From Planktothrix mougeotii LEGE 06226 (lineage in GTDB: Bacteria > Cyanobacteriota > Cyanobacteriia > Cyanobacteriales > Microcoleaceae), in assembly GCF_015207485.1 (NCBI RefSeq), contig NZ_JADEWU010000005.1:116508-156988 (forward strand): 40,481 nt of DNA, written 5' to 3'. The notes below the pieces were generated by a model. It made no database searches. It had not been told where the DNA came from and saw only the letters and a list, made by a program, of their open reading frames with translations. Positions 2,497 through 35,126 of this stretch are shown here, piece by piece (the first letter of the stretch is position 1; every line of letters begins with the position of its first letter). The translations under genes were made by a program, and so were the position numbers.

Positions 2497-3621
2497 ATGC
2501 CAGATCATTCTTTTTTTGAGCAGCAAAAAGAACAATCCTTAGTTAAAGCTGAAATTGTAGCTAAATATTTTTGGGAGTGGGCTGGAGTGATGATCCCCCA
2601 AGCCAAAAAATGGGGGACAAAAATTGCATATATTGATCTGTTTTGTGGGCCAGGCGTTTATGAAGATGGATCTAAATCTACTCCCATACTAATTTTAGAG
2701 AAGGCAATTAATGATGCAAATATGCAAGAGTTACTCGTAACAATATTTAATGATTGTGATGAAAAGAATACTAAATCTCTAAAAGCAGCTATAGATGCTC
2801 TACCTAATATTAACTTATTAAAAAATCAACCGACGATACAAAACATGACAGTAGGTAGAGAGTTTGAGGAATTTTTTCAGAAAAAAAAATTCATTCCGAG
2901 CCTATTCTTTATTGACCCTTGGGGATATAAAGGATTATCACAACAATTGATTGGATCGGTCATTAAAGATTGGGGTTGTGATTGTATATTCTTCTTTAAT
3001 TATAACCGTATTAATCCTGGCTTAAGTAATCGAGCAGTTGAAAAAAACATGAACGATTTGTTTGGCAAAGAAAGAGCAGATGAGTTGCGATCGCAACTTC
3101 AAACAAAAAGTCCTCATGAAAGAGAACTAATGATTGTAGAATCAATTTCTCAAAGTTTAAAAACAATAGGGGGTGAGTATGTATTGCCATTTTGCTTTAA
3201 AGATGAGAAAGAAGCAAGAACAAGCCATTATCTAATTTTTGTATCGAAACATAAAAAAGGTTATTCAACTATGAAACGTATTATGGCTAAGGCGAGTTCC
3301 AGTACAGAACAAGGTGTACCTTCCTTTGAATATAATTCAGCTACAAGCTCACAACTTCTACTATTTCCTTCACGACCTCTTGACGATTTGGAAAATATGT
3401 TACTAGATGAATTTGCAGGTCAGACATTGACAATGAACGAAGTTTATGAACAGCATAATGTAGGAAAACGTTACATTGAGAGGAATTATAAAGATGCTCT
3501 TTTAAAACTAGAAGATCAAGGCAAGATTATAACAAAATCAGAAAAAAAACGAAGGAAAGGAACATTTGGAGATGAAGTCATCGTTACATTCCCACCAAAA
3601 TCGGAAAATTCTCTGTTTTAG
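2497..3621 (+). CDS. TcmP-like protein (three-Cys-motif partner protein family) with methyltransferase-like motifs
   Basis: The 374-aa protein carries YIDLFCGPGVYEDG (like SAM-MTase motif I hhDhFxGxG) and FFIDPWGY (like motif IV (D/N)PP(Y/F/W)). It is encoded convergently with a DUF5131 gene and overlaps it at the 3' end, the pairing described for the TcmP family. I recognise the family by the sequence pattern only. Confidence 0.6.
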   Translation: MPDHSFFEQQKEQSLVKAEIVAKYFWEWAGVMIPQAKKWGTKIAYIDLFCGPGVYEDGSKSTPILILEKAINDANMQELLVTIFNDCDEKNTKSLKAAIDALPNINLLKNQPTIQNMTVGREFEEFFQKKKFIPSLFFIDPWGYKGLSQQLIGSVIKDWGCDCIFFFNYNRINPGLSNRAVEKNMNDLFGKERADELRSQLQTKSPHERELMIVESISQSLKTIGGEYVLPFCFKDEKEARTSHYLIFVSKHKKGYSTMKRIMAKASSSTEQGVPSFEYNSATSSQLLLFPSRPLDDLENMLLDEFAGQTLTMNEVYEQHNVGKRYIERNYKDALLKLEDQGKIITKSEKKRRKGTFGDEVIVTFPPKSENSLF

Positions 3622-4372
3622 ATTGACGAGTTGATGAAGCAGAATAACTTTGCCATTTCTTCTGATGTTCATACCAAGCTTCAGGCATTTCATCCCAAAT
3701 TTTACCTTCTAATAACCGTCCTCCTGCTTTTGGTGTTCTCCCTCCGACTTGTTTAAAGAAAAATGCTACATTTTCGGCTTCACATTGTTGCTGAATATCT
3801 TTAGCCCATTCTAACTGCATAGGTCGATGTTTTACTCCTGATTCTCCCCCAACAATTACCCATTGAATTCCTTTTAAATTAAGTTCTAACGGCCCCAATA
3901 AGGGTTCACAAGATAGAAAACGAACAGATGCTGGAACTTTTCTTAAATAATCAATTCTATGAACATAGTTTTGATTTTCAACAGAGACTCCCATCCAAAT
4001 ATTATCTGACCATTCTAGTTGAGGAGCAATTTCTACTAATCGCTCATGCCGTTTAGTCAAAATTTGATAAATGTGATGAGGAGTTTTATGAATAACATCA
4101 AACACTTTTTGGAGAAATTCTACAGGAATATCTTCATGAAAAAGATCACTCATTGAGTTAACAAAAATTCGGCTAGGTTTCCGCCATTTTAAGGGTTCTT
4201 CTAATCGTTCTGGATGTAATGTTAAAGCAAATCCATTCTGAAAATTTTGAGTAAAACGTTTGGTAATTGCTTCTGCATAGCAATGGGTACATCCAGGGCT
4301 AACTTTGTTGCATCCGGTTGTCGGATTCCATGTTCTGTCTGTCCATTCTATCCCTGTATTTATACTTGCCAT
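3584..4372 (-). CDS. DUF5131 / phage Gp37-Gp68 family three-Cys-motif protein
   Basis: The N-terminus MASINTGIEWTDRTWNPTTGCNKVSPGCTHCYAEA matches the family hallmark (IEWTD.TWNP..GC...S.GC..CYA), a Cx5CxxC three-Cys motif. Its 3' end overlaps the TcmP-like gene by about 38 bp. Confidence 0.65.
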   Translation of the reverse strand: MASINTGIEWTDRTWNPTTGCNKVSPGCTHCYAEAITKRFTQNFQNGFALTLHPERLEEPLKWRKPSRIFVNSMSDLFHEDIPVEFLQKVFDVIHKTPHHIYQILTKRHERLVEIAPQLEWSDNIWMGVSVENQNYVHRIDYLRKVPASVRFLSCEPLLGPLELNLKGIQWVIVGGESGVKHRPMQLEWAKDIQQQCEAENVAFFFKQVGGRTPKAGGRLLEGKIWDEMPEAWYEHQKKWQSYSASSTRQSKTENFPILVGM

Positions 4373-9685: not shown

Positions 9686-9727
9686 TTCTGATTCAATGTA
9701 TTATTAAGTGCGATAGGATGACGCTAT

Positions 9728-10687
9728 TTAGGTAGAATATTTTACTGTAGGAAGATGAACACCAACATAACCAATAATCACTTTTTCCGTTTTACGCTCT
9801 AGGAAAAAATGAATTCGCCAATTACATTGTTTCAGCTTAATATGTTGATCAAATAAACGTTCTTCCCCATCAGGACACAAAAAAGTTCGTTCTTTCCAAT
9901 ATTTATCAAGTGTTCGTTTACTTTCTCCAGAAACATCAAGAGAATATCCTTCTAAACTAAATTCTTTGCACCCTTGACTAATCCAAATTTCTGTATATTC
10001 TTCCAGTTGCTCTAAAGTTTTTAAAACCCATTTTAATTTAGCCTCTCCTGAACCAAGTATACGCAATTGTTTAGTACCTGTTTTACAAAATTGTAAATGT
10101 GAAAATAACTGATCTTTACGATTCCATAAATCATTGCCATCATATATTTCTCTTTGTGGATTTGGAGGTAAATAATGTCCCGGTATATTTTTAACTTGGT
10201 CAGCATTTATTAAATTATAAACCTCTATAATTTCTGAGGGATTTTCATCCAGCTTAAATAAGACATTGATCAATTCACTGGAGAAATCAGGTGCTTGCTG
10301 TAAACTAATCAAAATTCCTTGTAAGTATGCTGCACCAGCCAATGAACTTTCACAATAGTCTTCACCATTAAATTCGCATTCCCAATATAATAGTTCTTGA
10401 TTTAAAATATCTAAGATAAAAGGCCCATCTGTAAATAATTTAATCAATAATAATGCTTGCACTTGATCATGATCATTAGATAATGATTTTTCATACACCC
10501 AGTCTTTTACTGTATAGTTTTCTGTAATTTTGCAATTTGAAAATAATTCATGTATATAAATAGAATCATTTCCTAAAATGGGTTTAATTGCCTTGATAAC
10601 CTCTGCTAAAGCTTTCATCAGGGTGTCAGCATCATAAATATTTGTAGCTTGCCCAATAAAAGATAATTCGTTAATTAAGAAATTCAT
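9728..10687 (-). CDS. Hypothetical 319-aa protein, third gene of the DUF262-ATPase operon (no recognisable domain)
   Basis: Its start overlaps the ATPase stop by 1 bp (TAATG). The protein is acidic and Cys/Trp-containing (…CPDGEERLFDQHIKLKQCNWRIHFF…) with no motif I can assign. It sits in the same AT-rich block. Confidence 0.55.
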   Translation of the reverse strand: MNFLINELSFIGQATNIYDADTLMKALAEVIKAIKPILGNDSIYIHELFSNCKITENYTVKDWVYEKSLSNDHDQVQALLLIKLFTDGPFILDILNQELLYWECEFNGEDYCESSLAGAAYLQGILISLQQAPDFSSELINVLFKLDENPSEIIEVYNLINADQVKNIPGHYLPPNPQREIYDGNDLWNRKDQLFSHLQFCKTGTKQLRILGSGEAKLKWVLKTLEQLEEYTEIWISQGCKEFSLEGYSLDVSGESKRTLDKYWKERTFLCPDGEERLFDQHIKLKQCNWRIHFFLERKTEKVIIGYVGVHLPTVKYST

Positions 10688-11796
10688 TACATTAATTGGA
10701 TTAAATCTTTTTGAGTTTGATCAAAAAAACCAGCAGGCCATTTATTAATTCGACCATTTTTATCAATTTTTGGGGATATTATTTCTGTGATTAATTGTCC
10801 ATCCTCGTCTATCCGTTGAAAGTAGTTTAATTGAACATCTTCAGGTTTAATTTTACCATCATGAACCGCAAGACGAATTCCATTTAACACATGATCACTA
10901 TGGGTTTCTACAACAACTTGAACTCCACAACTTGCTGCAAGTGCTAACAGTTGACCCATTTTGGATTGTCCTTTAGGATGAAGATGGGCTTCTGGGTTTT
11001 CTATTAAAATGAGTGTTCCTGGTTTAGAGGATAATACAGCAACTATAATAGGCAACACATAACTAATCCCAAAACCTACATTAGTCGCACGATATAAATT
11101 ACTTAGTCCATAAGAGTATTCTAAACTTACTAAATCTAGTTGTGGATTATCATTAATTGTAATACGTGTTCCGGGGCTAATTTCTCCCATCCAGGCTTCA
11201 ACTTGAAATCCTAGTTTTAATGATTCTGCTGACGGGTGACTAAGTTCACTATTAGGAATAATTTTATCGCGATATAGTGCCAGGAAATGTGCTGTATATT
11301 CACCGCTAGTTCCGATTTGATTGTGCATCCGTACCTGAAAATCCGACTTTTTTAAATAAATACGAGGGCCAATTCGTTCAGCTTGTAGATAGTGGAAATT
11401 GTCCCCAAACAGATTTGATTGATAAATTTCAGAATTCACTTCAGGTGAAGTTAAATCGAGAACATCTGCCTCTTCATCATAATTAAAATACCACGTTCCT
11501 TGTAGTTTATTATTCCAAGTAATTGTAAAACCAATTGCATCTTCTTCTGCATCCTCGAATAAAGCATCTTTTGCTGTTCCAACACACACTAAATCACCAT
11601 TCAATGCTAATCCTGTTTCTGGTAACAAATCCTGTTGATAAGATTGGCGTAGTAATAGTAATGATTGCAATAACGAAGATTTTCCTGAACTATTCAAACC
11701 AGAAAGCAGAGTCAATGCTCCTAAACTAATCAATTGATCAGCAAAACATTTAAAATTTTTAAGATGAATTGAACTCATCATACTAGCTGAACTCAT
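10687..11796 (-). CDS. ABC-type AAA ATPase (AAA_21/AAA_15-like) with DUF3696-like C-terminus
   Basis: Walker A is LLSGLNSSGKSSLLQSL. Walker B/D-loop is GTLILIENPEAHLHP and the H-loop is VVVETHSDHVL. The C-terminal GRINKWPAGFFDQTQKDL resembles DUF3696. It is translationally coupled on both sides. Confidence 0.75.
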   Translation of the reverse strand: MSSASMMSSIHLKNFKCFADQLISLGALTLLSGLNSSGKSSLLQSLLLLRQSYQQDLLPETGLALNGDLVCVGTAKDALFEDAEEDAIGFTITWNNKLQGTWYFNYDEEADVLDLTSPEVNSEIYQSNLFGDNFHYLQAERIGPRIYLKKSDFQVRMHNQIGTSGEYTAHFLALYRDKIIPNSELSHPSAESLKLGFQVEAWMGEISPGTRITINDNPQLDLVSLEYSYGLSNLYRATNVGFGISYVLPIIVAVLSSKPGTLILIENPEAHLHPKGQSKMGQLLALAASCGVQVVVETHSDHVLNGIRLAVHDGKIKPEDVQLNYFQRIDEDGQLITEIISPKIDKNGRINKWPAGFFDQTQKDLIQLM

Positions 11797-12974
11797 GATG
11801 CTAACACCTCTTGAATAATCCTTTCTACTGTACTAAATCTCAAAGATACTTTTTCACCCGCTTGAGAAATAGATTTTAAAAAGTCCTTATCATTATCAAC
11901 TAAATAACTAAATTTTTGTTTTAACTCCTCTTTTCTTTTTTTAAGAATGTGTAATTCGGTATCATCAAGTTTACTCAGATTTACAGACCAGGCTTCAAAC
12001 AAGGCTTCATTAACAGGATATCTTCTTCCATTTTGATTTGAAATTTTTCTAAATGCAGTATCCCCAAAAATATCGTATGCTGCTATCATTGAACGCTTAA
12101 AACTATCTACAATTTCTTTTAATTTATCTTCAGATAAAGATTGATTAATTTCCTCCATTGTTTTATGAAAAAAATCATCTCTACTTTTAGATTGATAGTA
12201 ATCTTGATAATTATTAATTTTAAAAGCTAAAAATCCTAACACAAACTCCTGATCTATCATTCTCTTTTTTTTTCGAGATTTGTCAAGATTGGTAACTTTT
12301 TTAAATTCTTTCATGTTAGCTAATTTAGATAAAATTTTTGTAGCTTTTCCTTGGTTTAATGCGTTGCGAGTTTCTTGAGGGGAAAGAGGTACTCCTCCTG
12401 TATTGATACGTCTAAATATATTATATTTTACAGATGGAGGGGTACCTTCTTCAACAACATAAATTGTTAGTTGAGTCTCAAGTAAGCGACGTTGATACTT
12501 ACGAGGTAGTTCATCGTAAGTTTTTTCTTGAATATCAGTTAGATAATCTAATTCATCAGTTAACTTTAGTTCTTTATTTAAAATAAACTTTTTTAGTGCT
12601 GTTAATCGCTGTCGTCCATCAATAACTACCCATCGATCATCATCAGTCGCATCCATATAAAACGAAGGTAAGGGAATACGCAGAAGAATAGACTCTATTA
12701 ACTTACTCTGAGCTTTATCCGTCCAAATATCTGAACGCTGAAAAGAAGGTGCAAGATCAATCTCTCCATGATTAATCCTTGAAAGCACTAAATCAATCGT
12801 CATTTGTCGAGTATCAACTCTAATTTTAGTTGGATCAAATGGTTCATTAATTCCTTCATCATCTGCTTCAATTATATTGTCATCATCAAAATCTTCTAAA
12901 TCCATATCTGTCTGATACTCAATACCATCCTTTTCAATTTTTAATTCTAATTGCTCATTTTGCGAATTTATCAT
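11793..12974 (-). CDS. DUF262 (ParB/Srx-fold, GmrS-like) domain protein; first gene of a 3-gene defense-like operon
   Basis: It has the DGQQR-type hallmark ...RWVVIDGRQRLTALKKF. An acidic N-terminus precedes it. I did not recognise a DUF1524/HNH C-terminus. Its stop overlaps the start of the downstream ATPase (ATGA). Codon usage is AT-rich relative to chlN next door. Confidence 0.75.
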   Translation of the reverse strand: MINSQNEQLELKIEKDGIEYQTDMDLEDFDDDNIIEADDEGINEPFDPTKIRVDTRQMTIDLVLSRINHGEIDLAPSFQRSDIWTDKAQSKLIESILLRIPLPSFYMDATDDDRWVVIDGRQRLTALKKFILNKELKLTDELDYLTDIQEKTYDELPRKYQRRLLETQLTIYVVEEGTPPSVKYNIFRRINTGGVPLSPQETRNALNQGKATKILSKLANMKEFKKVTNLDKSRKKKRMIDQEFVLGFLAFKINNYQDYYQSKSRDDFFHKTMEEINQSLSEDKLKEIVDSFKRSMIAAYDIFGDTAFRKISNQNGRRYPVNEALFEAWSVNLSKLDDTELHILKKRKEELKQKFSYLVDNDKDFLKSISQAGEKVSLRFSTVERIIQEVLAS

Positions 12975-13027
12975 AATTGATCTATTTTTTTAAGGATATG
13001 AATATTTTTATTATAAACAACAAAGAG

Positions 13028-13062
13028 GGCGATCGCATTCGATCACCCTTTTTATTATACTA
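13028..13062 (-). terminator. Putative rho-independent terminator downstream of chlN
   Basis: On the minus strand the sequence reads AGGGTGATCGAATGCGATCGCCCT followed by CTTTGTTGTTT. That is a 10-bp stem with a single G·U/mismatch, followed by a U-rich run. It lies between the chlN stop and the DUF262 operon start. Confidence 0.4.
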
Positions 13063-13080
13063 ATCCATTGTCTAAAGCAA

Positions 13081-14607: not shown

Positions 14608-16110
14608 TTATTTAAAATCCGACAGGGAAATTTCGTCATCATCTGAAGAACCGGTTAATCCGTCGATATCAATATCGTCCATATCTCCAGTTGTTAAATC
14701 ACCCATATCGTCGAGATTAAAATCCCCTAAATCATCGGATGAAAAATCATCATCCCCTAATCCTAAATCGTCTAAATTATCTCCGGTATCGAGATCCAGG
14801 CCATCGGAAGCGTTATCTTCCCCCAATCCTAAATCACCGAGATCATCATCCAGACTTGAATCTGTATCTTCTAATTCCAACCCTCCTAAATCATCAGAAC
14901 CAAGGTCGTCAGCTTCTAGGCTGATTTCTCCATCTAAGTCATCTGCGGCTAAAACTTCCGACTCTAAGCTGAGATCGTCCATTCCATCTGAACCCAGATC
15001 ATCGGAGGATTCCAAACCAAAATCGATATCATCGCTTATCTCCGTGTCTTCACCCAGTTCCGTATTAACGTTGTCGTCCCAGACATCAGATTCGGTATCA
15101 ATGTCTAATTCAGCCGATTCCGTTTGCGAATCTAAGCTCAAATCGAAATCATCAGCACCCATCTCATCGGAATCTAAACCCATGTCCAGGTCATCAGCAC
15201 CCATCTCATCGGAATCTAAACCCATGTCTAGGTCATCAGCGCCCATCTCATCGGAATCTAAACCCATGTCTAGGTCATCAGCGCCCATCTCATCGGAATC
15301 TAAGCCCATGTCCAGGTCATCAGCACCCATCTCATCGGAATCTAAGCCCATGTCTAGGTCATCAGCACCCATCTCATCGGAATCTAAGCCCATGTCTAGG
15401 TCATCAGCACCTAGGGCTTCTGATTCATCCTCCAACCCTAGATCAAAGTCTTCCTCGGCTACGCTAGCCGTCTCTGTGTCGATATCTAAATCCAGATCCC
15501 CATCGACATCAGTGTCCTCCATTGCCTCTGCATCCAGATCATCCATTCCGAAATCATCATCCATGCCGGAATCATCTAGGCCCATCTCATCAATGGTGAT
15601 TTCTTCTTCGGTCTCAAGCTCGAGTTCATCGGAGTCATCCAGGGTATCGGCAATCACCGCAGCCCCTCCAACAACAGCGGCAGCACTGGCAACGGCCACG
15701 GCAGCACCCGCTATATTGGGTTGTTCTACCAGAGTCACTTCCTCCTCTAAATTCAGTGTCTCTGGAGGGGCCGGAGGAACCGGAGTTGGCGTTGGAACAA
15801 CTACCGTTGCAGATTCTCCTGGGGTAGGCCTAATGCCCAACGCTATATCGGGATCAAAATTCAGCCCTAAAACATCAATCAGTTTTTCAGGATCTGGATT
15901 GAGTTTAGAAAAGGGCAACATGAGTTGGGCTGCCTCTGGGTCAAGCGCGTTGATCGTTCCCAAAATGAGGGAGGAGGCGGGTCTTCGACCCCCATCGGGG
16001 GTCGGTATTGAATTCAAATCCATTTGCAGTACCAGCCACTCTCGATTGGCTTGGTAATATTGCAACCACTTATCTTTAAGCGCGGTGGTAAAGTCTTTGA
16101 AGAAAGCCAT
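14608..16110 (-). CDS. Hyper-acidic repeat protein: conserved N-terminal ~120-aa domain, Pro-rich linker, Ala-rich hydrophobic segment, about 330-aa Asp/Glu-rich low-complexity tail with 6 tandem 14-aa repeats (GADDLDMGLDSDEM)
   Basis: It lies on the same strand as chlL and chlN and is wedged between them (36 bp after the chlL stop, 120 bp before the chlN start). A 500-aa ORF is kept open through the perfect 42-bp repeats. The N-terminus is MAFFKDFTTALKDKWLQYYQANREWLVLQM…. The hydrophobic segment is NIAGAAVAVASAAAVVGGAAVIA. Confidence 0.7.
   Translation of the reverse strand: MAFFKDFTTALKDKWLQYYQANREWLVLQMDLNSIPTPDGGRRPASSLILGTINALDPEAAQLMLPFSKLNPDPEKLIDVLGLNFDPDIALGIRPTPGESATVVVPTPTPVPPAPPETLNLEEEVTLVEQPNIAGAAVAVASAAAVVGGAAVIADTLDDSDELELETEEEITIDEMGLDDSGMDDDFGMDDLDAEAMEDTDVDGDLDLDIDTETASVAEEDFDLGLEDESEALGADDLDMGLDSDEMGADDLDMGLDSDEMGADDLDMGLDSDEMGADDLDMGLDSDEMGADDLDMGLDSDEMGADDLDMGLDSDEMGADDFDLSLDSQTESAELDIDTESDVWDDNVNTELGEDTEISDDIDFGLESSDDLGSDGMDDLSLESEVLAADDLDGEISLEADDLGSDDLGGLELEDTDSSLDDDLGDLGLGEDNASDGLDLDTGDNLDDLGLGDDDFSSDDLGDFNLDDMGDLTTGDMDDIDIDGLTGSSDDDEISLSDFK
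15151..15410. repeat. 42-bp near-perfect tandem repeat (6 full copies plus partial copies)
   Basis: The unit is atcagcacccatctcatcggaatctaa(a/g)cccatgtc(c/t)aggtc. Copies start at 15151, 15193, 15235, 15277, 15319 and 15361. It is in frame within the acidic-protein CDS and encodes GADDLDMGLDSDEM. It has no spacer structure and is not CRISPR-like. Confidence 0.9.
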
Positions 16111-16146: not shown

Positions 16147-17013
16147 TTAAACCATCATCAGGTCTAGCTCATCTTCCTGACTTTGAACAAGGGGTTGAGT
16201 CGGATTTAGATAAAAATCTGATAACAAGGTGAATAAATCCCGATCTGGCGCGTCTTGAGGAACTACTCCTTCGGGTTGTGACAGCAGTTGATCGGCAATA
16301 TTCAGATAATAATCACAAACGTAGTTGAGGGATGGATCACTTTCGGCCATCTCAAATAAGGTTTTTCCTTTCACGCGGGACACCCGAATGTCCTCGATTA
16401 AGGGTAATACCTCTAAAACAGGCATGGGAACAGATTCAATATATTTTTCAATCAGATCCCGTTTAGAGGTGCGATTTCCGATTAATCCTGCTAATCGTAA
16501 AGGGTGGGTACGGGATTTTTCCCGGACTGAGGCGGCGATGCGGTTGGCTGCAAATAGGGCATCAAAGCCATTATCGGTGACAATGACGCAATAGTCGGCA
16601 TAGTTGAGGGGGGCAGCAAACCCACCACAAACCACGTCCCCTAAAACGTCAAACAGAATCACATCGTATTCGTCAAAGGCGTTGAGTTCTTTGAGGAGTT
16701 TGACGGTTTCTCCCACAACGTAACCGCCACATCCTGCACCTGCTGGAGGGCCACCTGCTTCGACGCAATCGACACCCCCATAGCCTTTATAGATCACGTC
16801 TTCTGGCCAAATATCTTCGTAATGAAAGTCTTTTTCCTGCAAGGTATCAATAATCGTGGGAATTAAAAATCCTGTGAGGGTAAAGGTGCTGTCGTGTTTG
16901 GGATCGCAGCCAATTTGCAGGACTTTTTTACCTCGTTTGGCTAAAGCGGCTGAGATATTACAGCTTGTGGTTGATTTACCAATTCCGCCTTTACCGTAGA
17001 CTGCTAATTTCAC
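16147..17013 (-). CDS. chlL: Light-independent protochlorophyllide reductase iron-sulfur ATP-binding protein
   Basis: [59 protein letters not shown]… is the NifH-like P-loop. At 288 aa the length is canonical for ChlL. Confidence 0.93.
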
Positions 17014-27505: not shown

Positions 27506-27586
27506 ATGACAATCAGACGAGGTGAAATTTGGATTACCAACTTCGATATTCCGTTGCATTCTGTTATCAAATTAATGAAATAAATT
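27506..27586 (+). pseudogene. Truncated MazF/PemK-like toxin remnant (26 codons)
   Basis: MTIRRGEIWITNFDIP… resembles the MazF/PemK N-terminus (RGEIWLVDFDP). It ends after 26 aa, abutting the UbiA gene stop. Its ATG overlaps the TGA of the upstream 62-aa ORF 27321..27509 (ATGA), a TA-like arrangement. Confidence 0.3.
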
Positions 27587-28651
27587 AATCTTAAAATACA
27601 AGATTGCTAAGTAGCAAATTAGCCAAATCATTAAACTTAATTTAATCGTAGTATCTTGAATTAAAATTCGGCTGGGTTCTTCACCTTCTGCTAACACTGT
27701 GACTAACCATTTATAGTGCATTACGGCATAATAAACAATCGGAACGGTAATCACTAACGAGGGATTTTTACCTGATGTTATTGTAAATAAAGCATAGCAC
27801 ATAATGGTCATTGTTGCTGTGCTATTGAGTAGAGAATCTAAATAAGGTAAGGTGTATTGAGAGAGAACTGGACGTTGTTGGTTTTTTCTACCTCGTTGAT
27901 AAAATAAGTGTAAATAAGAACGTTCTAACGGTGCTGATTTTATATCTTCTTGAGGTAGATTTTCAGACTCTAAACTGTCTTGATGGTTTTGAAAATGCAA
28001 GAGAGATAAAAGTTCAGAACGCCGTTTAGAAAACCCTAAAAATAAAGTTAGAAAAAAGGTACATAAAACAATCCAAGCCGTCGGCATATCTCCTAACGCA
28101 TAAATTCCTGCTAATAGCCTTAATACAAACCCAAAGGCAATACAATTAACATCAAATAAAGGTATATTTTTTAATTTTAGAGAATAAGCAATATTGTTAA
28201 TAGCGTAAAGTAAAATGCAAATTAATGTGGGAACTCCTAAAAAATATGCACCCCATAGGGAAATGATTGCTAAAGGAATTGCGATCACGAATCCCATTTT
28301 AACTGAAACTTGACCACTCGCAAGGGGACGATACTTTTTTTTCGGATGCAGGCGATCGCGTTCTCGATCTTGAATATCATTAAAAATATAAATAGCTGAT
28401 GCCATTGCTGAGAAAAAAATTACCGTTAATCCTGATAGCCAAATGCTCTGGGGCTGTAATAGTCTACCCCCAAACAAAAGTCCGGCTAAACAGAATAAAT
28501 TTTTTGTCCATTGGTGGGGGCGCAGAAGTTTAATTAGGGGGGGAATAGTTTTAGATGGAGTTGGTTTAAATAAAGGATCAGTCGTCTCAGAAATTGTCTC
28601 TAATACAGAAGTAGAATCACCCGAATAATGGTCTTGATTTGCTGGTTTCAT
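27572..28651 (-). CDS. UbiA-family prenyltransferase, decaprenyl-phosphate phosphoribosyltransferase (DPPR synthase)-like
   Basis: NDIQDRERDRLHPKKKYRPLASGQVS matches the DPPR-synthase subfamily motif (NDxxDxExDRxHPxKxxRPhAxG). There are 8-9 predicted TM helices and an N-terminal soluble extension. Confidence 0.7.
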   Translation of the reverse strand: MKPANQDHYSGDSTSVLETISETTDPLFKPTPSKTIPPLIKLLRPHQWTKNLFCLAGLLFGGRLLQPQSIWLSGLTVIFFSAMASAIYIFNDIQDRERDRLHPKKKYRPLASGQVSVKMGFVIAIPLAIISLWGAYFLGVPTLICILLYAINNIAYSLKLKNIPLFDVNCIAFGFVLRLLAGIYALGDMPTAWIVLCTFFLTLFLGFSKRRSELLSLLHFQNHQDSLESENLPQEDIKSAPLERSYLHLFYQRGRKNQQRPVLSQYTLPYLDSLLNSTATMTIMCYALFTITSGKNPSLVITVPIVYYAVMHYKWLVTVLAEGEEPSRILIQDTTIKLSLMIWLICYLAILYFKINLFH

Positions 28652-28705
28652 GAATGGTTTAACTCCTCACAGTTTAGTCTAATGAGTTCAACAGTATTTT
28701 TGACT

Positions 28706-29068
28706 TTAACGAGACATAATCACAATTCCAGCCACAATAAAGCTTAATCCTATCATTTGATTTAATCCAACACGCTCTCCTAAAAATAAGCTTCCCATCA
28801 ATGCAACTAAGCTAAAACCAATAGCAGCAAAGACAGGATAAGCAATGGAAACAGGTAAGCGATCTAAGGCTTTAGCAAAGACAATTAAGTTAATTCCATA
28901 GACTAGGATTGCTGCCATAAACCAAGGAGATAATAATAGAGTGAGTATACTGGGATCAGGAGCTTCTAGTCGAGACTTTTTGAGTAATAAATTGCCAATT
29001 CCTGTGTTCATAGCCGCAATTAAAACTAAACTCCATGAAATCCAATTAGCTGAGTTGATATTGTTCAC
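28706..29068 (-). CDS. Small 4-TM membrane protein (SMR/EamA-half or GtrA-like), putative polyprenyl-phospho-sugar flippase subunit
   Basis: It is 120 aa with four hydrophobic helices. It sits directly downstream of the UbiA gene, analogous to ArnE/F or to mycobacterial Rv3789 next to dprE1/E2. Confidence 0.55.
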   Translation of the reverse strand: MNNINSANWISWSLVLIAAMNTGIGNLLLKKSRLEAPDPSILTLLLSPWFMAAILVYGINLIVFAKALDRLPVSIAYPVFAAIGFSLVALMGSLFLGERVGLNQMIGLSFIVAGIVIMSR

Positions 29069-29161
29069 GATTTGTTATTAGAATAGGAGATTGAATTATT
29101 CTTAATCATCCTTAAAATGTTAGATGGCGCGTGCGCTGCGCTTACGCACCCTACCATTAAG

Positions 29162-30187
29162 TTAGGAGAGTTGTTTTAACACCCAAAGTAATTTTTCTTT
29201 GACGGGACGCCGATGGGCTGAACCTGCTTTTTCCGCTTGCAGTTGATTATAGTTCTTTTGAAACCAATCATAACTTTCTCGGAACATTTCATCATTAGAA
29301 TATTTAGGTTTCCAGCCCAGTTTTAGCAGAGGATCAACATCAAAATAAAATTCTTTGTGATAGGTTAAATAATGCCAAGGGGCGAGAGGACTTAACCCCA
29401 TCCAGTCTAACAGTTGTAAGGTTCCAATGGTTAATCCAGTGGGTAAACTTTTAACTTGAGACTCTGTTCCTGCATATTCAATTAAATGTTCTAACCCTTC
29501 TCGTAACGTGCCAAAGCGATCAGTTCCGACATTATAGATTCCAGGTTGACCTAAATCAAGGGCTAGAAGATAAGCATCCATTAAATCATGAGCATGAACA
29601 AACTGAAATTTAACGTTCCCACTCCCAATTACATAAACATTTTTTCCTTCTTGAATCCATTCAAATAATATCTGAAAAATTCCTAATCTTCCTTCGCCTA
29701 AAATTGTCCGAGGACGAATTACAATTAAGGGTAAACCCGCTTGATCACAAATTTCTCTAACTGCTAATTCTCCAGCTAATTTTGCTCGTCCATAAATCTC
29801 AACGGCTTTTGTCGGGGTATCATTTGTAATCGGACATTCAGCCTCGCCAAATAAAGCACTAGAACTCATGTGAATAAAACTTTTGACTCCGGCTTTTACC
29901 GCTTCTTCGGCGGCGATTTTGCTTCCTTCAACGTTGACTTCCCAGAATTTATTACCAGATTTTGTTAAGGGAACTAAAGCCACATTATGATGGACAATAT
30001 CAATATCTTTCATCGCTTTTGCAACCCCAGTGCGATCGCAAATATCACAGTTAATAAATTCAATTTCTGGGGGACGGGTCGGATCTTCCCAAATATCTAA
30101 AATTTTAACGTCTTCTCCCCGTTCATATAATCGACGGGCAATTAAATTTCCTAAAAACCCCGATCCTCCCGTAATTAAGTGCTTCAT
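29162..30187 (-). CDS. NAD-dependent epimerase/dehydratase (extended SDR)
   Basis: The N-terminal motif is MKHLITGGSGFLGNLIARRL (GxxGxxG). YxxxK context is present in the central region. Confidence 0.8.
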   Translation of the reverse strand: MKHLITGGSGFLGNLIARRLYERGEDVKILDIWEDPTRPPEIEFINCDICDRTGVAKAMKDIDIVHHNVALVPLTKSGNKFWEVNVEGSKIAAEEAVKAGVKSFIHMSSSALFGEAECPITNDTPTKAVEIYGRAKLAGELAVREICDQAGLPLIVIRPRTILGEGRLGIFQILFEWIQEGKNVYVIGSGNVKFQFVHAHDLMDAYLLALDLGQPGIYNVGTDRFGTLREGLEHLIEYAGTESQVKSLPTGLTIGTLQLLDWMGLSPLAPWHYLTYHKEFYFDVDPLLKLGWKPKYSNDEMFRESYDWFQKNYNQLQAEKAGSAHRRPVKEKLLWVLKQLS

Positions 30188-30239
30188 AAAGTTCTGTTTG
30201 TCCTCAACACCATTTGTTTTGTCGTATCATAAACGAAAT

Positions 30240-31886
30240 TTACCCATCCGTAAAGGTTAAACTTAGCTTGCGGTGTGGAACAGGTAAAAGTTGACCTTGA
30301 GAATAATAGAAAACTTGCTCAATGGGAATATTGTTTTTAATTTTAATTTGATAAGATTGATGAGTTTTAAAATCAAAATTTTCAATAGTAAATTTTTTTC
30401 GTTTAAACGTTTGTTCTAAAGGTAAACTAACATTCATAAAATAAATTCCTTCACCGACTAATTGAATTTGATAAGTATAGGGTTCAATTTCTGCAACTTT
30501 GAGTTGGTTTTCAGGACTCAGCAGATTGTGAAACGATGCAATATTCAAAAATTTTATCTTAATGTTATGAATAGAAAATAGTTGTGCTGCGTGATAAATA
30601 CCGTTTCTATAAATGTAAGCTCCTTTAAAATTATCGGGAACATTAATAATAAGTAATCCCGGTTGATTTCCCCTCTGATCATTAATGCTTTTAATCAACT
30701 GATGAGAAATTTGACTAGCTATCTGCCAATTTTTATTAGCGATATAGATATTCTTTATCAAAAATATTGAAAAAATTACTGCTAAAAAAATAATAGTATG
30801 TTTCTTTTTAACCAGAAAACTGATAATAAATACCAGTAGAATTACGAAAAAAACAGAGGGTAAATAAAGAATTCTTTCAGCTTGTGTATCCCCCAGTGAA
30901 ACTCTAATATTAATCACGGGAAACATTGAGATTAAAAAGGCATAAATTAGAAATAGTAATAACTTAGCTTGTTCTCGGTAAATCCCCCCTAACCGAAAAT
31001 ATTGAATCACAAAAATCGTAACTAAACTGATGAAGATGAGAAAACACCATTGCCATTGAACTTCTCCAGATTGAGGTAATGGAGGTATGATAATTCTAAG
31101 ACTACTAGCAAGTCCCCTGAGTATAATTGGGACAGAAAAATTAAGATGAGTTTGAGATCCATATCCACCTAATAATTGCTTTAATCCTAAATATCTCATT
31201 CCTAAATAAATTGGAAAAATAGAAGCCATTAATATTGGTAAAATCATCACCTTATAAAGCTGCTTTAGAGGTTTTTTATTTTGAAAAAATTGATAAATTT
31301 CATACCCTAAAATTAATCCAGGATAGATAATGACTGATTCTTTGGAAAGTAAAGCAAATATAAACCAGACATAAGAACTGAGTAGCCAGAACTTATTAGA
31401 GTTATGTTTGTAATATAAATAGCTATTGAAGGCGGCTAGAAAAAAACAAGTTGCTACTACATCGGAACGTGCAGAAATCCAAGTAACTGCTTCTACATGG
31501 CTGGGTAAAACTAGAAATAAAAAACCTGCAATTATAGAAATGGATTGGCTTGTTTTTTTAGATAAATGACTATGAACTAATAGCTGAGAGGAAATCAAAT
31601 AGACAAAAAAACAACAGATTCCATGAAAGATAATATTAGTGAGATGATAACCTACAGGATTTAAGCCCCAAATTTGATAATCTAAAAATAAAAGGATGGA
31701 AATTATCGGTCTAAAAAAAACATCGGGTGCAGTTGTCCATACTCCAAATATTCCTTGAGTTTGAATTTGATAAATCCAGGTAAAATCATCGGATAGAAAA
31801 AAAGAATTGATAATCGGAAAGTAAATAATAACACTCAGAACAATAGAAACAATTAAAATTCCTAGGAAGTAGCCTTTTTTAATCAT
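30240..31886 (-). CDS. Polytopic membrane protein, GT-C-type glycosyltransferase-like (polyprenyl-phosphate-sugar dependent), C-terminal soluble domain
   Basis: About 12 TM helices are predicted. An acidic motif (FLSDDFTW) sits in the first extracytoplasmic loop after TM1, as in the ArnT/PMT/Aft GT-C families. Its start overlaps the DUF218 gene stop. Confidence 0.5.
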   Translation of the reverse strand: MIKKGYFLGILIVSIVLSVIIYFPIINSFFLSDDFTWIYQIQTQGIFGVWTTAPDVFFRPIISILLFLDYQIWGLNPVGYHLTNIIFHGICCFFVYLISSQLLVHSHLSKKTSQSISIIAGFLFLVLPSHVEAVTWISARSDVVATCFFLAAFNSYLYYKHNSNKFWLLSSYVWFIFALLSKESVIIYPGLILGYEIYQFFQNKKPLKQLYKVMILPILMASIFPIYLGMRYLGLKQLLGGYGSQTHLNFSVPIILRGLASSLRIIIPPLPQSGEVQWQWCFLIFISLVTIFVIQYFRLGGIYREQAKLLLFLIYAFLISMFPVINIRVSLGDTQAERILYLPSVFFVILLVFIISFLVKKKHTIIFLAVIFSIFLIKNIYIANKNWQIASQISHQLIKSINDQRGNQPGLLIINVPDNFKGAYIYRNGIYHAAQLFSIHNIKIKFLNIASFHNLLSPENQLKVAEIEPYTYQIQLVGEGIYFMNVSLPLEQTFKRKKFTIENFDFKTHQSYQIKIKNNIPIEQVFYYSQGQLLPVPHRKLSLTFTDG

Positions 31887-32461
31887 GGTTTTAATAGATA
31901 GAGGTTTTTATAACAAATAATCCAGTGAAATACCTTAATTAAATCATAGACTAAAGCCATCGCTTCGTAAATCAAATTAGCAGGTAAATAATGATAATAA
32001 ATAAGACGTAGTGGCATCGTTCTATTTGCAAGTTCAGGATAAGAAGTAATAACTTCTTGGACGTTATAACCACACAGCTTAAACATTAACTGACTTCGTA
32101 AAGCATGGGGTTGATTACAATATAAAATCACTTCTCCTAAAGGCCATTGTTCCTGTTTTTCTAGCCATTTTCTTAATAATCTAGCATTATCAAACGTATC
32201 CAAATAGGGACGATCTTGAACATTTTCAGGAACAATAACTTGGAGTTCAGGACGATAATGTAAAAGATATTTTGCAGCACACTGTTCTTCTGATTCAGGA
32301 CAATCAAAGGAATTACCCGGAGAAATAAATACTTTTTCCTCAACAGGAACTTGCTTTAAAACTTGTTGTAAAACCGCTTCAAAATAATTTGATAAAAAGT
32401 AGTATTGAGCAAAATCTTCCCGATAAACTAATCCTTCTGTGACGACAATATGGCTAACCAT
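31883..32461 (-). CDS. DUF218 (YdcF/ElyC/SanA-like) envelope-biogenesis protein
   Basis: PYLDTFDNARLLRKWL matches the DUF218 S.NT.ENA motif. VILYCNQPHALRSQLMFKLCG matches the LVTS.YHM.RA motif. It is coupled to neighbours (overlaps at both ends). Confidence 0.55.
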   Translation of the reverse strand: MVSHIVVTEGLVYREDFAQYYFLSNYFEAVLQQVLKQVPVEEKVFISPGNSFDCPESEEQCAAKYLLHYRPELQVIVPENVQDRPYLDTFDNARLLRKWLEKQEQWPLGEVILYCNQPHALRSQLMFKLCGYNVQEVITSYPELANRTMPLRLIYYHYLPANLIYEAMALVYDLIKVFHWIICYKNLYLLKP

Positions 32462-32463
32462 GA

Positions 32464-33546
32464 TTAATCTAATCCTCCATAATTTTCAAAAATCCAGGTT
32501 AAGCTTCTTCGCATTCCTTCTTCTAAGGAAATTGTGGGATGATACCCTAATTCTCGTTGAGCTTTTGCGACCGAACAAGCAATGGTTTTATTCATTTCTG
32601 AGAGAACATGAATTTTTTGATGATAGAATCCTAGAGCTTGTAATGTTCCATCAACAACTAAAGCAACTTCACTGGCTAATCCCGATAATTTTAATCGTTT
32701 ATGAACACAATTCTGTTGAAATTCTGTTTCTAATAAGCGTTCAACGGTATCAATAATGTCATTCATGGAGTAGGGACATTCATCGGCTATCCAATAGGTT
32801 TGTCCGTTGGCTTTTTCTGTAATAGCAGCTAACAATAATCCCTGACAAAGATTATCAACATAAGCCATTGACCGGAGATTATTTCCATCCCCAACAATCG
32901 GCCCTTTTCCATCTCGAATCATTTTAAAAAATAGGGTTTGGCGTTGAGGTTGATGGGGGCCATAAAACCAAGGGGGACGAATCACAACGGTTTCAATTTC
33001 TCCCTGTTCTTGATAGTTTTTAACCGCTAATTCCATTAGCATTTTTGAACGTCCATAGTTCATATAAGGATGATAGGGAGAGATTTCATCGAATAAATGA
33101 TCAGGATGGGGATTACAACCACAGGGGGAATTTGAAGAGACAATAATTGCTCGTTTTACACCCCTACAAATGGCAGAATTTAATAGATTTTTTGTTCCTT
33201 CTACATTAATTTGATAAAATTCTGATACTTTTTGCGGGTGAATAATTCCAGCCGTATGAAATAAAATAGCATTTTCGGCATTTTCACAAAAGCGATCACA
33301 ATCTTGAGGGTGTCTTAAGTCTCCTTGATAAATTTCAATTTTATCCGATATTCTTTGCAATAGGGTTGCATCTTGTTCTGGTAAAATTAAACACCGAATT
33401 TTTAAGTTATTTTGAGGTTGATTCAGGGGTTCAAAATCGGGTAATCCTTTAACCAATGATTCGACTAAACGAATTCCTAACCACCCTAATGCACCTGTAA
33501 CTAAAATAAGGTTAGTTTTTAATTCCATAATTTTATTATTCCGCAT
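32464..33546 (-). CDS. NAD-dependent epimerase/dehydratase (extended SDR, UDP-sugar 4-epimerase/4,6-dehydratase-like)
   Basis: The N-terminal motif is ILVTGALGWLGIRLVESL. The catalytic region is YGRSKMLMELAV (YxxxK). Confidence 0.8.
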   Translation of the reverse strand: MRNNKIMELKTNLILVTGALGWLGIRLVESLVKGLPDFEPLNQPQNNLKIRCLILPEQDATLLQRISDKIEIYQGDLRHPQDCDRFCENAENAILFHTAGIIHPQKVSEFYQINVEGTKNLLNSAICRGVKRAIIVSSNSPCGCNPHPDHLFDEISPYHPYMNYGRSKMLMELAVKNYQEQGEIETVVIRPPWFYGPHQPQRQTLFFKMIRDGKGPIVGDGNNLRSMAYVDNLCQGLLLAAITEKANGQTYWIADECPYSMNDIIDTVERLLETEFQQNCVHKRLKLSGLASEVALVVDGTLQALGFYHQKIHVLSEMNKTIACSVAKAQRELGYHPTISLEEGMRRSLTWIFENYGGLD

Positions 33547-33668
33547 TAAGTAGGTAAACCAAATTAATTACACAAGACTTCATAATTGGTTATAATCCAT
33601 TGGAACAGCTTGTCCGGCGATGACATTTGTAAAACTCCTGAGTTAAGGGGTTAATTTAGTTCATTATC

Positions 33669-35126
33669 TTAAAGTTTATCTAAAAATTTTAACGCATTTC
33701 GACGAGCGATCGTCATAATTGAACCTTGAGGATTGACCCCTGGTGCGGTACAAAGTAAACTAGCATCCGCAATATATAAATTATTGAATCCATGAACTTG
33801 ACCAAAGGAATTAACAGCACATTTTTGTAAATTTTCTCCCATTGGACAGGAGGAAAAAACATGAACGGTCATTAAATTTGTTTGTTTGACAGGAAGTTTT
33901 TCTGCTATTGTACTTAAATCTTGAGGATGGGTCAAGGGAGAAGTATTAGAAATACTAGGATAGAGAATTTTTGCATCTGCTTCAAACAATAATAACGCTA
34001 ATTTTTGTAACGCTTCTGATAAATCTTTTAAATCTTGAGAAGTTAGTTTATAGCGAACAAAAGGATCACGATAAAAGGGAATATTTCTGACTGTACCCGA
34101 ACCTTCCCCAGTAATCATAGCATAATAAATTGCCATGTTTTGCCACTGTTTTTCAACGGTTTCTGTATATTGAGGATGGTCAGTCATTCCCACCGATAAA
34201 TAAGGCAGAGAACTAATCGAACATCCGAAACTAAATCGAGGTGAAAATTCTTTGACTTGATGAACAGGAACCCCCATATCTAAGGCGTTAATATTCTCAT
34301 TAAATTGAGCAATTATTTTAACTGTTGGGTGCATTCTTAATGAATTACCAATATTATTTTTAATTCCACTTCGTCTTAATAAGGCTGGAGTTTGAATCGC
34401 ACCACAACAAACAAATACGGTTTCGGCTTGAATTTTAATCGAATTTTCGGGGATATTATTCCCTTGACGAGTTCCTGTTAAAATCCAAGTTTTATCCGTT
34501 TGTTGAAGACTGTTAATCCGAGTGTTTGCTAAGAGTTTACAACCCGCTTTTAACGCTCTAGGAATAAAGGTTTTTGTCATGGATTGTCGAGTTCCTTTGG
34601 GAACAGAAGTTTCATCAGATTCTTCATGACGAAACCATCGAGGAACTTCTAAAGATTGCCAACCTAAACGTATTGCACCTTCGTGTAATTTTAAAGATGC
34701 TGTTGGAGCTTTCCCCGGTAAATAACAGACGTTAACCGCTTGTTCACAAGCTTCAAAATGAGGAATTAAATCAACTTCGGTTAAAGCGTCTACTTCAAAT
34801 TCTGTGCGCCATTGTTCTAAAATATCTGGGGGTGTACGATGATAAAGTCCGCTATTAATTTCACTTCCTCCCCCGACACATCGACCTTCCACATATTGAA
34901 TTTTGGGTTGACCAAAGGCTGCGGTTAACCCTCCATTTCGGTATTTTTGCACCATTTCTTCAACGGAAAAAGGTTGACAGGATTCTAAGGGTAAATCGTC
35001 GCCTTCTTCTATTAATAAAACATCCCGTCCTGCTTCAGCCAATAAACAGGCGGTAATCGCTCCTCCAGGGCCAGAACCAATGATGGCAATTTCAACTTTT
35101 AAATCAGATTTCGAGGGTTGAAGCAT
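33669..35126 (-). CDS. GMC-family FAD-dependent oxidoreductase
   Basis: The N-terminal FAD motif is VEIAIIGSGPGGAITACLLAEAGRDVLLIEEG. The C-terminus carries the GMC_oxred_C-like region (…NLYIADASLLCTAPGVNPQGSIMTIARR). Confidence 0.8.
   Translation of the reverse strand: MLQPSKSDLKVEIAIIGSGPGGAITACLLAEAGRDVLLIEEGDDLPLESCQPFSVEEMVQKYRNGGLTAAFGQPKIQYVEGRCVGGGSEINSGLYHRTPPDILEQWRTEFEVDALTEVDLIPHFEACEQAVNVCYLPGKAPTASLKLHEGAIRLGWQSLEVPRWFRHEESDETSVPKGTRQSMTKTFIPRALKAGCKLLANTRINSLQQTDKTWILTGTRQGNNIPENSIKIQAETVFVCCGAIQTPALLRRSGIKNNIGNSLRMHPTVKIIAQFNENINALDMGVPVHQVKEFSPRFSFGCSISSLPYLSVGMTDHPQYTETVEKQWQNMAIYYAMITGEGSGTVRNIPFYRDPFVRYKLTSQDLKDLSEALQKLALLLFEADAKILYPSISNTSPLTHPQDLSTIAEKLPVKQTNLMTVHVFSSCPMGENLQKCAVNSFGQVHGFNNLYIADASLLCTAPGVNPQGSIMTIARRNALKFLDKL

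Follow-up and report, generated by a model that had tools for sequence, protein, structure and literature searches.

The three adjacent genes beside chlN in a 40,481-nt stretch of Planktothrix mougeotii LEGE 06226 (the window, to whose positions all coordinates refer) are a complete copy of Menshen (NsnABC), an anti-phage defence system that already has a name, and the locus is a new member of Type I of that system. We put at about 0.85 the probability of the full reading, in which a complete Type I Menshen system sits on an AT-rich cassette of 3.4 kb that fills a variable site flanked by chlN and an SH3-domain gene, acts by the mechanism of the published model and is exchanged among alleles in three modules. 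Menshen received its name in 2022 and a detailed computational analysis in 2025, and as a category of defence system the locus offers nothing new. Its interest lies in the natural series of alleles to which it belongs.

Identity of the operon and its proteins

Profile searches against Pfam, NCBIfam and PADLOC-DB cover the three proteins as follows (genes, then best PADLOC match).

11793..12974 (-): nsnA, intact open reading frame (ORF), 393 amino acids; NsnA model, E-value 2.1e-130, residues 22-391 on model positions 22-383 of 385
10687..11796 (-): nsnB, intact ORF, 369 amino acids; NsnB model, E-value 8.9e-132, residues 6-369 on model positions 1-343 of 345
9728..10687 (-): nsnC, intact ORF, 319 amino acids; NsnC model PDLC03879, E-value 1.6e-58, residues 1-313 on model positions 3-304 of 305

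The matches of NsnA and NsnB beat those of the next PADLOC families (PD-T4-2_A at 7.5e-39, HEC-03B at 3.9e-39 and AriA at 9e-28) by at least 90 orders of magnitude, and NsnC is matched by NsnC models alone. An earlier, sequence-only reading had taken the genes for a three-gene anti-phage operon, possibly unnamed, and had offered Menshen as a tentative likeness. The operon and the name both held, the Menshen models fitting far better than any other PADLOC family. The novelty did not, because PADLOC assigns all three genes to this characterised system. We also considered PD-T4-2 and set it aside, since PD-T4-2_A matches at 7.5e-39 against 2.1e-130 for NsnA and the partner genes match NsnB and NsnC. 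Other resources are less informative: NCBIfam has no equivalog for NsnA or NsnC and gives NsnB only sub-threshold ATPase matches, while sequence searches of the PDB returned nothing for NsnA or NsnC and, for NsnB, a match limited to the N-terminal P-loop of an OLD ATPase.

All the sequence hallmarks that Li et al. (NAR 2025, PMC12065111) list for NsnA and NsnB, including the DUF262 motifs, a Walker B of the 'EN' kind and GxG in place of SGG, are found at the locus. In NsnA, Pfam recognises GmrSD_N/DUF262 (6e-26) at residues 67-206 only, and motifs I-III read QRSDIW at 79-84 (QRxxxW), DGRQR at 119-123 (DGxQR) and FRRIN at 187-191 (FxxxN, within FRRINTGG at 187-194). Neither NsnA (at E-values up to 1) nor its neighbours contain DUF1524 by Pfam, which bears out the expectation of a ParB-like DUF262 protein with a DGRQR motif and no DUF1524/HNH tail. 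The C-terminus is probably an NsnA-C/ParBDB-type region that replaces the DUF1524 nuclease, as suggested by the alignment of the PADLOC model through residue 391. The first 50 residues form an acidic tail with 18 aspartates or glutamates; NsnA carries this tail and no extra globular N-terminal sensor domain, and it is therefore Type I in the scheme of Li et al.

NsnB agrees equally well with what had been expected of it, an ABC ATPase with Walker A and B motifs, a His-loop and a DUF3696-like end. Pfam finds AAA_15 (4e-24), AAA_21 (4e-19) and DUF3696 (9e-17, residues 316-368); Walker A is GLNSSGKS (33-40), the sensor histidine lies in THSDH (298-302), Walker B is LILIEN (262-267), the unusual 'EN' variant, and GFG (241-243) is the GxG that replaces SGG. 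NsnB is an OLD-type ABC ATPase with a DUF3696 tail and the predicted transducer of the system.

NsnC, which has no match in Pfam, was modelled with AlphaFold2 from an alignment of 85 full-length homologues, nearly all of them cyanobacterial. The model (mean predicted local distance difference test score 84.3) consists of an N-domain (1-165) and a C-domain (183-319) with a low-confidence linker at 171-177 between them; by a structure search the first is PIN-like and the second has the BECR fold of RelE, YoeB and YafQ. The functional parts of the three proteins map as follows.

12606..12620 (-): DGRQR codons, NsnA 119-123, the predicted nucleotide-binding centre of DUF262 (motif role per PMC12065111)
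10996..11013 (-): Walker B codons (LILIEN) of NsnB, which coincide with the upstream allele-module breakpoint described below
10193..10687 (-): NsnC 1-165, PIN-like domain ('inPIN'), the predicted docking site of the NsnB DUF3696 tail
9731..10141 (-): NsnC 183-319, BECR-fold RelE/YoeB/YafQ-like RNase domain

A PIN-like N-domain followed by a BECR C-domain is the NsnC architecture of Li et al. (PMC12065111). The alignment of 85 homologues shows no variation at H282, Y307 and G309 of the C-domain and at least 90% conservation at R291, H293 and H311; in the model these residues lie on sheet strands 2 and 3 and just past the last strand. The set H282-R291-H311 fits the 'H-R-H' triad with which PB-BECR1 is described (PMC12065111). 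In the N-domain the only conserved acidic residues are E7 and D66 (at least 90%), not the D-E-D-D of active PINs, which is consistent with an 'inactive PIN'; the canonical PIN residues are missing in all 35 inPIN families of Li et al. (PMC12065111). The sequence-only reading had called the third protein one without a recognisable domain, which is true of Pfam at the sequence level, although the PADLOC NsnC models and the structure search do recognise it. Its suggestion that this protein is the effector is consistent with the PIN-like and BECR RNase folds.

The ORFs lie exactly where they had been placed, on the minus strand with overlapping stop and start codons: ATGA at 11796-11793 for nsnA/nsnB and TAATG at 10691-10687 for nsnB/nsnC. 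They are adjacent and co-directional in the order A-B-C, an order that homologous loci keep, and the identical arrangement is present on read-assembled contigs. The surroundings are these.

9687..13077 (-): variable cassette, from the chlN stop to the stop of the SH3 gene; its bounds are the breaks in the 94% flank homology with L003
13081..14487: chlN, the 5' neighbour of the operon
13026..13049 (-): terminator-like hairpin of chlN, which holds the cyanobacterial HIP1 palindrome GCGATCGC
13010..13015 (-): TATAAT, putative -10, 36 nt 5' of the nsnA ATG; -35 match 3/6, weak

The cassette (9687-13077) has a guanine-plus-cytosine (GC) content of 0.319, compared with values of 0.409 in chlN, 0.419 in the SH3 gene and 0.385 over the whole window, and it is the minimum among all 3.39-kb sliding windows of the stretch, in line with the earlier remark that the block is more AT-rich than chlN. 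Housekeeping genes stand on either side: an ShlB-type transporter, chlL, a DUF5331 acidic-repeat protein and chlN on one, and the SH3-domain protein followed by a GFO/IDH/MocA oxidoreductase on the other. The SH3 gene is convergent with the operon, and its spacer to nsnC is 42 bp. The terminator hairpin that had been noticed after chlN is seen at 13049-13026; the hairpin at the equivalent position in L003 and L004 has a different sequence. As for a promoter, the -10 proposed near 12990 does exist as a TATAAT, but at 13015-13010 and with its weak -35; a scan for sigma-70 promoters did not call it and found promoter-like sites no more numerous than in shuffled sequence. A second TATAAT lies at 13059-13054, ahead of the chlN hairpin.

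A variable site at the 3' end of chlN

In a scan of loci with close ChlN, at one genome per species, Menshen stands directly after chlN only in two other Planktothrix among the 80 loci in the matches listed. These are L003, with a ChlN 98% identical to that of the window, and L004 (P. paucivesiculata), at 95%, and both hold a complete NsnABC by PADLOC. P. agardhii and P. rubescens were expected and were not seen among the ChlN matches listed. Lookups of NsnC homologues showed that L089 and L091-L093 also have Menshen, in the same chlL-DUF5331-chlN synteny, and metagenome contigs, scanned without bias from a 31-mer anchor close to the 3' end of chlN, yielded L087 and L088. L088 has Menshen at the chlN 3' site; besides the window, at least five Planktothrix-type contigs are occupied in this way. 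L087 is an empty site, in which chlN, hicB and hicA are followed directly by the Uma2 gene found after nsnC in L004; the segment 11929-14961 of L004 (3,033 bp, nsnABC with short spacers) is missing from it, with flanks 92-95% identical.

The restriction of Menshen after chlN to Planktothrix among those 80 listed loci, together with the empty L087 site, supports horizontal acquisition of the cassette beside chlN, as the sequence-only reading had proposed. Homology between the window and L003 ends exactly at the chlN stop (13078) and restarts at the SH3 stop (9686). The window contains no tRNA genes, and its cassette is flanked by neither direct nor inverted repeats, the sole repeat around it being a 19-nt pair at chance level; we therefore see no sign of an integrase-type island. 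On L003, a hicB fragment repeated in direct orientation (170 nt, 88% identity between the copies) borders the cassette on both sides. The NsnABC trio is also kept in other cyanobacteria: Nostoc carneum and an Oscillatoriales metagenome-assembled genome have homologous trios, likewise as stand-alone cassettes, and the neighbours of the Nostoc trio include Uma2, PIN-type toxin-antitoxin and nSTAND genes.

Other small genes come and go at the same position. A hicB/hicA-like pair (71 and 73 amino acids) occurs at the chlN 3' site of sister Planktothrix contigs, at L003 11479-11652 and 14796-14984, L004 11491-11915, L087 180-610 and L091 10969-11076. It is intact in L004 and L087 and reduced to hicB in L003 and L088; a remnant lies 3' of nsnC in L003 and L091-L093, and the window has none. 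A Uma2-family gene (putative restriction endonuclease fold, Pfam 4e-36) is found at L004 15012-15587 (-), L087 661-1236 (-) and L089 10048-10270 (-). In one Planktothrix lineage it replaces the SH3 gene downstream, so the right flank of the hotspot is itself polymorphic. In L088, the 3' end of chlN at 143-417 matches as two overlapping pieces at 67-79% protein identity, which suggests a frameshift or an assembly error beside an otherwise intact Menshen cassette.

The sister Planktothrix alleles (L003, L004, L088, L089 and L091-L093) share the position and operon architecture of the window; their NsnA proteins are 41-55% identical to it, and their hicB/hicA remnants and downstream gene (SH3 or Uma2) vary. 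The identities below are percentages of each allele's protein segment to the window.

ChlN: L003 98; L004 95; L088 absent from contig; L089 94; L091 98
NsnA: L003 43; L004 42; L088 41; L089 55; L091 53
NsnB 1-265: L003 51; L004 51; L088 52; L089 74; L091 55
NsnB 266-369: L003 91; L004 59; L088 60; L089 84; L091 68
NsnC 1-165 (inPIN): L003 93; L004 37; L088 36; L089 82; L091 27
NsnC 190-319 (effector): L003 32; L004 9; L088 12; L089 35; L091 75

The alleles are mosaics of three modules: NsnA with the NsnB core, the NsnB tail with inPIN, and the NsnC effector. ChlN is 94-100% identical throughout the compared alleles. The window has its coupling module (NsnB tail and inPIN) in common with L003 and its effector in common with L091. 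L003 and L091 have ChlN proteins that are 100% identical, yet their NsnA proteins are 43%, their inPINs 25% and their effectors 29% identical, and the effector of L004 belongs to a different NsnC class (PDLC03898). From allele to allele, NsnB-tail identity goes along with inPIN identity. The coupling module can be followed at the DNA level in one tract.

10090..11000 (-): recombinant tract common with L003, covering NsnB 266-369 and NsnC 1 to about 195

Compared with L003, the DNA goes from an identity of about 0.6 to one of at least 0.9 near position 11000, in the Walker B codons, and drops to about 0.45 by about 10090, in the inter-domain linker of NsnC. Within the tract, 10322-10590 is a 269-bp perfect match, an outcome with a probability of about 2e-7 given flanks that are 94.4% identical, and we take it as a mark of recent exchange.

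These patterns lead us to favour, if only somewhat, the idea that the chlN 3' end is a fixed hotspot at which co-occurring strains swap three independently inherited Menshen blocks, with breakpoints at the Walker B codons and in the NsnC linker. Domain shuffling and genus-level diversity of Menshen have been described in general (Li et al. NAR 2025, PMC12065111); to these the present locus adds a single-site, within-genus example with mapped breakpoints and with co-inheritance of DUF3696 and inPIN. That co-inheritance fits the interface predicted with AlphaFold 3. If the idea is true, the strict pairing of NsnB tail and inPIN would support the predicted docking of NsnB and NsnC with natural-genetic evidence that, for the first time, does not come from AlphaFold, and the strains would form a ready-made panel of chimeras for asking which module sets phage specificity. 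More broadly, a natural allele series with module-by-module differences and an empty site in ChlN backgrounds 94-100% identical could be used to test the Menshen mechanism, that is, which module senses, which couples and which kills. Planktothrix is bloom-forming and its interactions with cyanophages are ecologically important, and the series could show how strain-level defence diversity is kept up in blooms.

Proposed mechanism and alternatives

Our own analysis covers family membership, motifs, folds, the operon, cassette presence and absence, and mosaicism; the mechanism we infer from the literature and from homology. NsnA, with its ParB/DUF262 NTPase and DNA-binding C-domain, would sense phage DNA, by analogy with GmrSD and SspE, and signal to NsnB, the OLD-type ABC ATPase. 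By analogy with Gabija, Septu and PARIS, NsnB may form an ATP-dependent oligomer that clamps the PIN-like N-domain of NsnC through its DUF3696 tails. ATP binding or hydrolysis would release or activate NsnC, and its BECR domain would then cut RNA, stop translation and abort the infection. At the population level, exchange at this fixed site would involve three units: sensor plus ATPase core, ATPase tail plus inPIN, and effector domain. The sensor-transducer-effector model and the DUF3696-inPIN interface are AlphaFold 3 predictions of the published study (PMC12065111).

Several points weigh against this interpretation. The evidence for NsnB-NsnC binding consists of AlphaFold 3 models, and those models predict no contact of NsnA with NsnB or NsnC (PMC12065111). 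Phage protection has been shown for the Solibacillus silvestris StLB046 system alone (PMC12065111), which, in the summary of Millman et al. (2022) given by Li et al. (PMC12065111), protects against T2, T4, T6 and Fado. The operon promoter amounts to a -10-like hexamer, and a 2026 preprint disputes the inactivity of PIN for another NsnC class, BECR-Tox2.

We find it scarcely credible that the operon is a new, unnamed three-gene defence system merely resembling Menshen. Pfam and NCBIfam indeed do not name NsnA or NsnC, NsnC lacks a Pfam domain, and public records annotate the proteins as hypothetical (NsnC is 100% identical to a Planktothrix mougeotii entry). Against this, Menshen hidden Markov models match all three proteins end to end at E-values of 1e-58 to 1e-132, the motifs, gene order and NsnC fold agree with published Menshen, and cyanobacteria account for 8% of the catalogued loci (PMC12065111). 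Type IV restriction of the GmrSD or SspE kind, with a DUF262 protein that detects modified phage DNA and with DNA instead of RNA as the target of cleavage, has more in its favour and is still very unlikely. NsnA matches GmrSD_N and PADLOC 'REase_II' (1e-14), its C-domain is similar to the middle domains with which GmrSD and SspE bind DNA (PMC12065111), and the validated Menshen acts on T-even phages, in which cytosines are modified. No operon gene, however, has a DUF1524/HNH or other DNase domain in Pfam, and the only nuclease-like fold is of the RelE/YoeB/YafQ type, in which all characterised proteins are RNases. A role for NsnA in sensing modified DNA would itself be compatible with the Menshen model.

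NsnC might also be a dual nuclease. A catalytically active PIN-like N-domain, in place of a docking or RNA-binding module, is what the 2026 preprint argues for NsnC of the BECR-Tox2 class, and E7 and D66 are conserved at 90% or more in the N-domain here. We nevertheless regard it as unlikely, given two conserved acidic residues rather than the four of D-E-D-D, the loss of the canonical residues throughout the 35 inPIN families (PMC12065111), and the co-variation of inPIN with the NsnB tail, which fits a docking role. It is also possible to see the cassette as mainly selfish, an addiction-like element in which the ATPase holds a toxin, at a recombination hotspot beside hicBA and with little role in phage defence in Planktothrix. 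The effector has the fold of a toxin-antitoxin toxin, hicB/hicA and Uma2 genes sit at the same site in sister loci, and the empty site means that the cassette is dispensable. Yet the Menshen family has experimentally shown anti-phage activity, and strong diversification of sensor and effector in near-identical backgrounds is the pattern of an arms race, not of simple addiction; this view is very improbable.

The comparison with known systems places the locus closest to Menshen of S. silvestris StLB046. Both have three genes in the same order, a Type I NsnA with DUF262 motifs I-III and no DUF1524, an NsnB with AAA_15/AAA_21, DUF3696, Walker B 'EN' and GxG, and an NsnC with a PIN-like N-domain and a BECR C-domain bearing an H-R-H-type set. 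They differ in that the present host is a filamentous cyanobacterium, NsnA starts with an acidic tail of 50 residues, and the system is known from its sequence. PARIS, Septu and Gabija have an OLD-type ABC ATPase related to NsnB (AriA 9e-28, GajA 1e-13, PtuA 3e-11), with the predicted logic of an ATPase oligomer that holds or controls a nuclease effector. Unlike the window, with its separate ParB-like sensor gene and PIN-like plus BECR effector, they are two-gene or fused systems with Toprim (AriB, the GajA C-terminus) or HNH (PtuB) effectors and no DUF262 partner. We rejected them as identifications, the AriA, GajA and PtuA matches being weak against the NsnB model and a Toprim or HNH partner being absent.

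GmrSD, SspE and DndB share with NsnA an N-terminal ParB-like DUF262 NTPase followed by a helical DNA-binding domain, but the locus has no fused DUF1524 HNH, and its output would lie in separate ATPase and RNase-fold proteins. A GmrSD-type type IV enzyme was rejected on the DUF262-DUF1524 fusion, as there is no DUF1524 in NsnA or its neighbours. The toxins RelE, YoeB, YafQ and HigB have the BECR fold of the NsnC C-domain, whose conserved basic and histidine residues fall on the equivalent strands and at the C-terminus; unlike them, NsnC is fused to a PIN-like domain, lies inside a sensor-ATPase operon and has no cognate antitoxin gene. A type II RelE/YoeB module was likewise dismissed: the BECR part is the C-terminal third of a 319-residue protein, and the nsnC-SH3 spacer contains no small partner ORF.

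Other features of the window

Between chlL (16147-17013) and chlN, the DUF5331 protein (14608-16110, minus strand, 500 amino acids) is extremely acidic and contains about six tandem 'GADDLDMGLDSDEM' repeats, and local GC reaches 0.50. Planktothrix genomes with 95-98% identical ChlL and ChlN agree at only 60-69% in this protein.

A second low-GC block (0.30-0.38), at 27572-35126 on the minus strand, holds envelope and sugar-modification genes, among them a UbiA prenyltransferase, an SMR/EamA-like transporter, two NAD-dependent epimerases, DUF218 and a GMC oxidoreductase, and a 548-residue ORF (30240-31886) with no Pfam match. We considered this block (27.5-35 kb) as a defence island and rejected it, because its genes encode envelope and sugar enzymes and the six proteins tested, the 548-residue ORF included, gave no PADLOC match. 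Further along, at 35565-37367 on the plus strand, a 600-residue ORF without Pfam or PADLOC match sits where the AT skew is strongly negative (about -0.24) and the GC content is 0.32.

Some 5 kb from Menshen, 2497-3621 (+) and 3584-4372 (-) form a convergent, overlapping pair with a GC content of 0.33-0.35. The first encodes a 374-residue protein with a GMT-wHTH domain that matches PADLOC PDC-M30A over its full length (1.3e-28), and the second a 262-residue DUF5131 protein that matches PDC-M30B (1.8e-109) and PDC-M41B (2e-111). By these profile matches, 2497-4372 is a PADLOC candidate defence pair.

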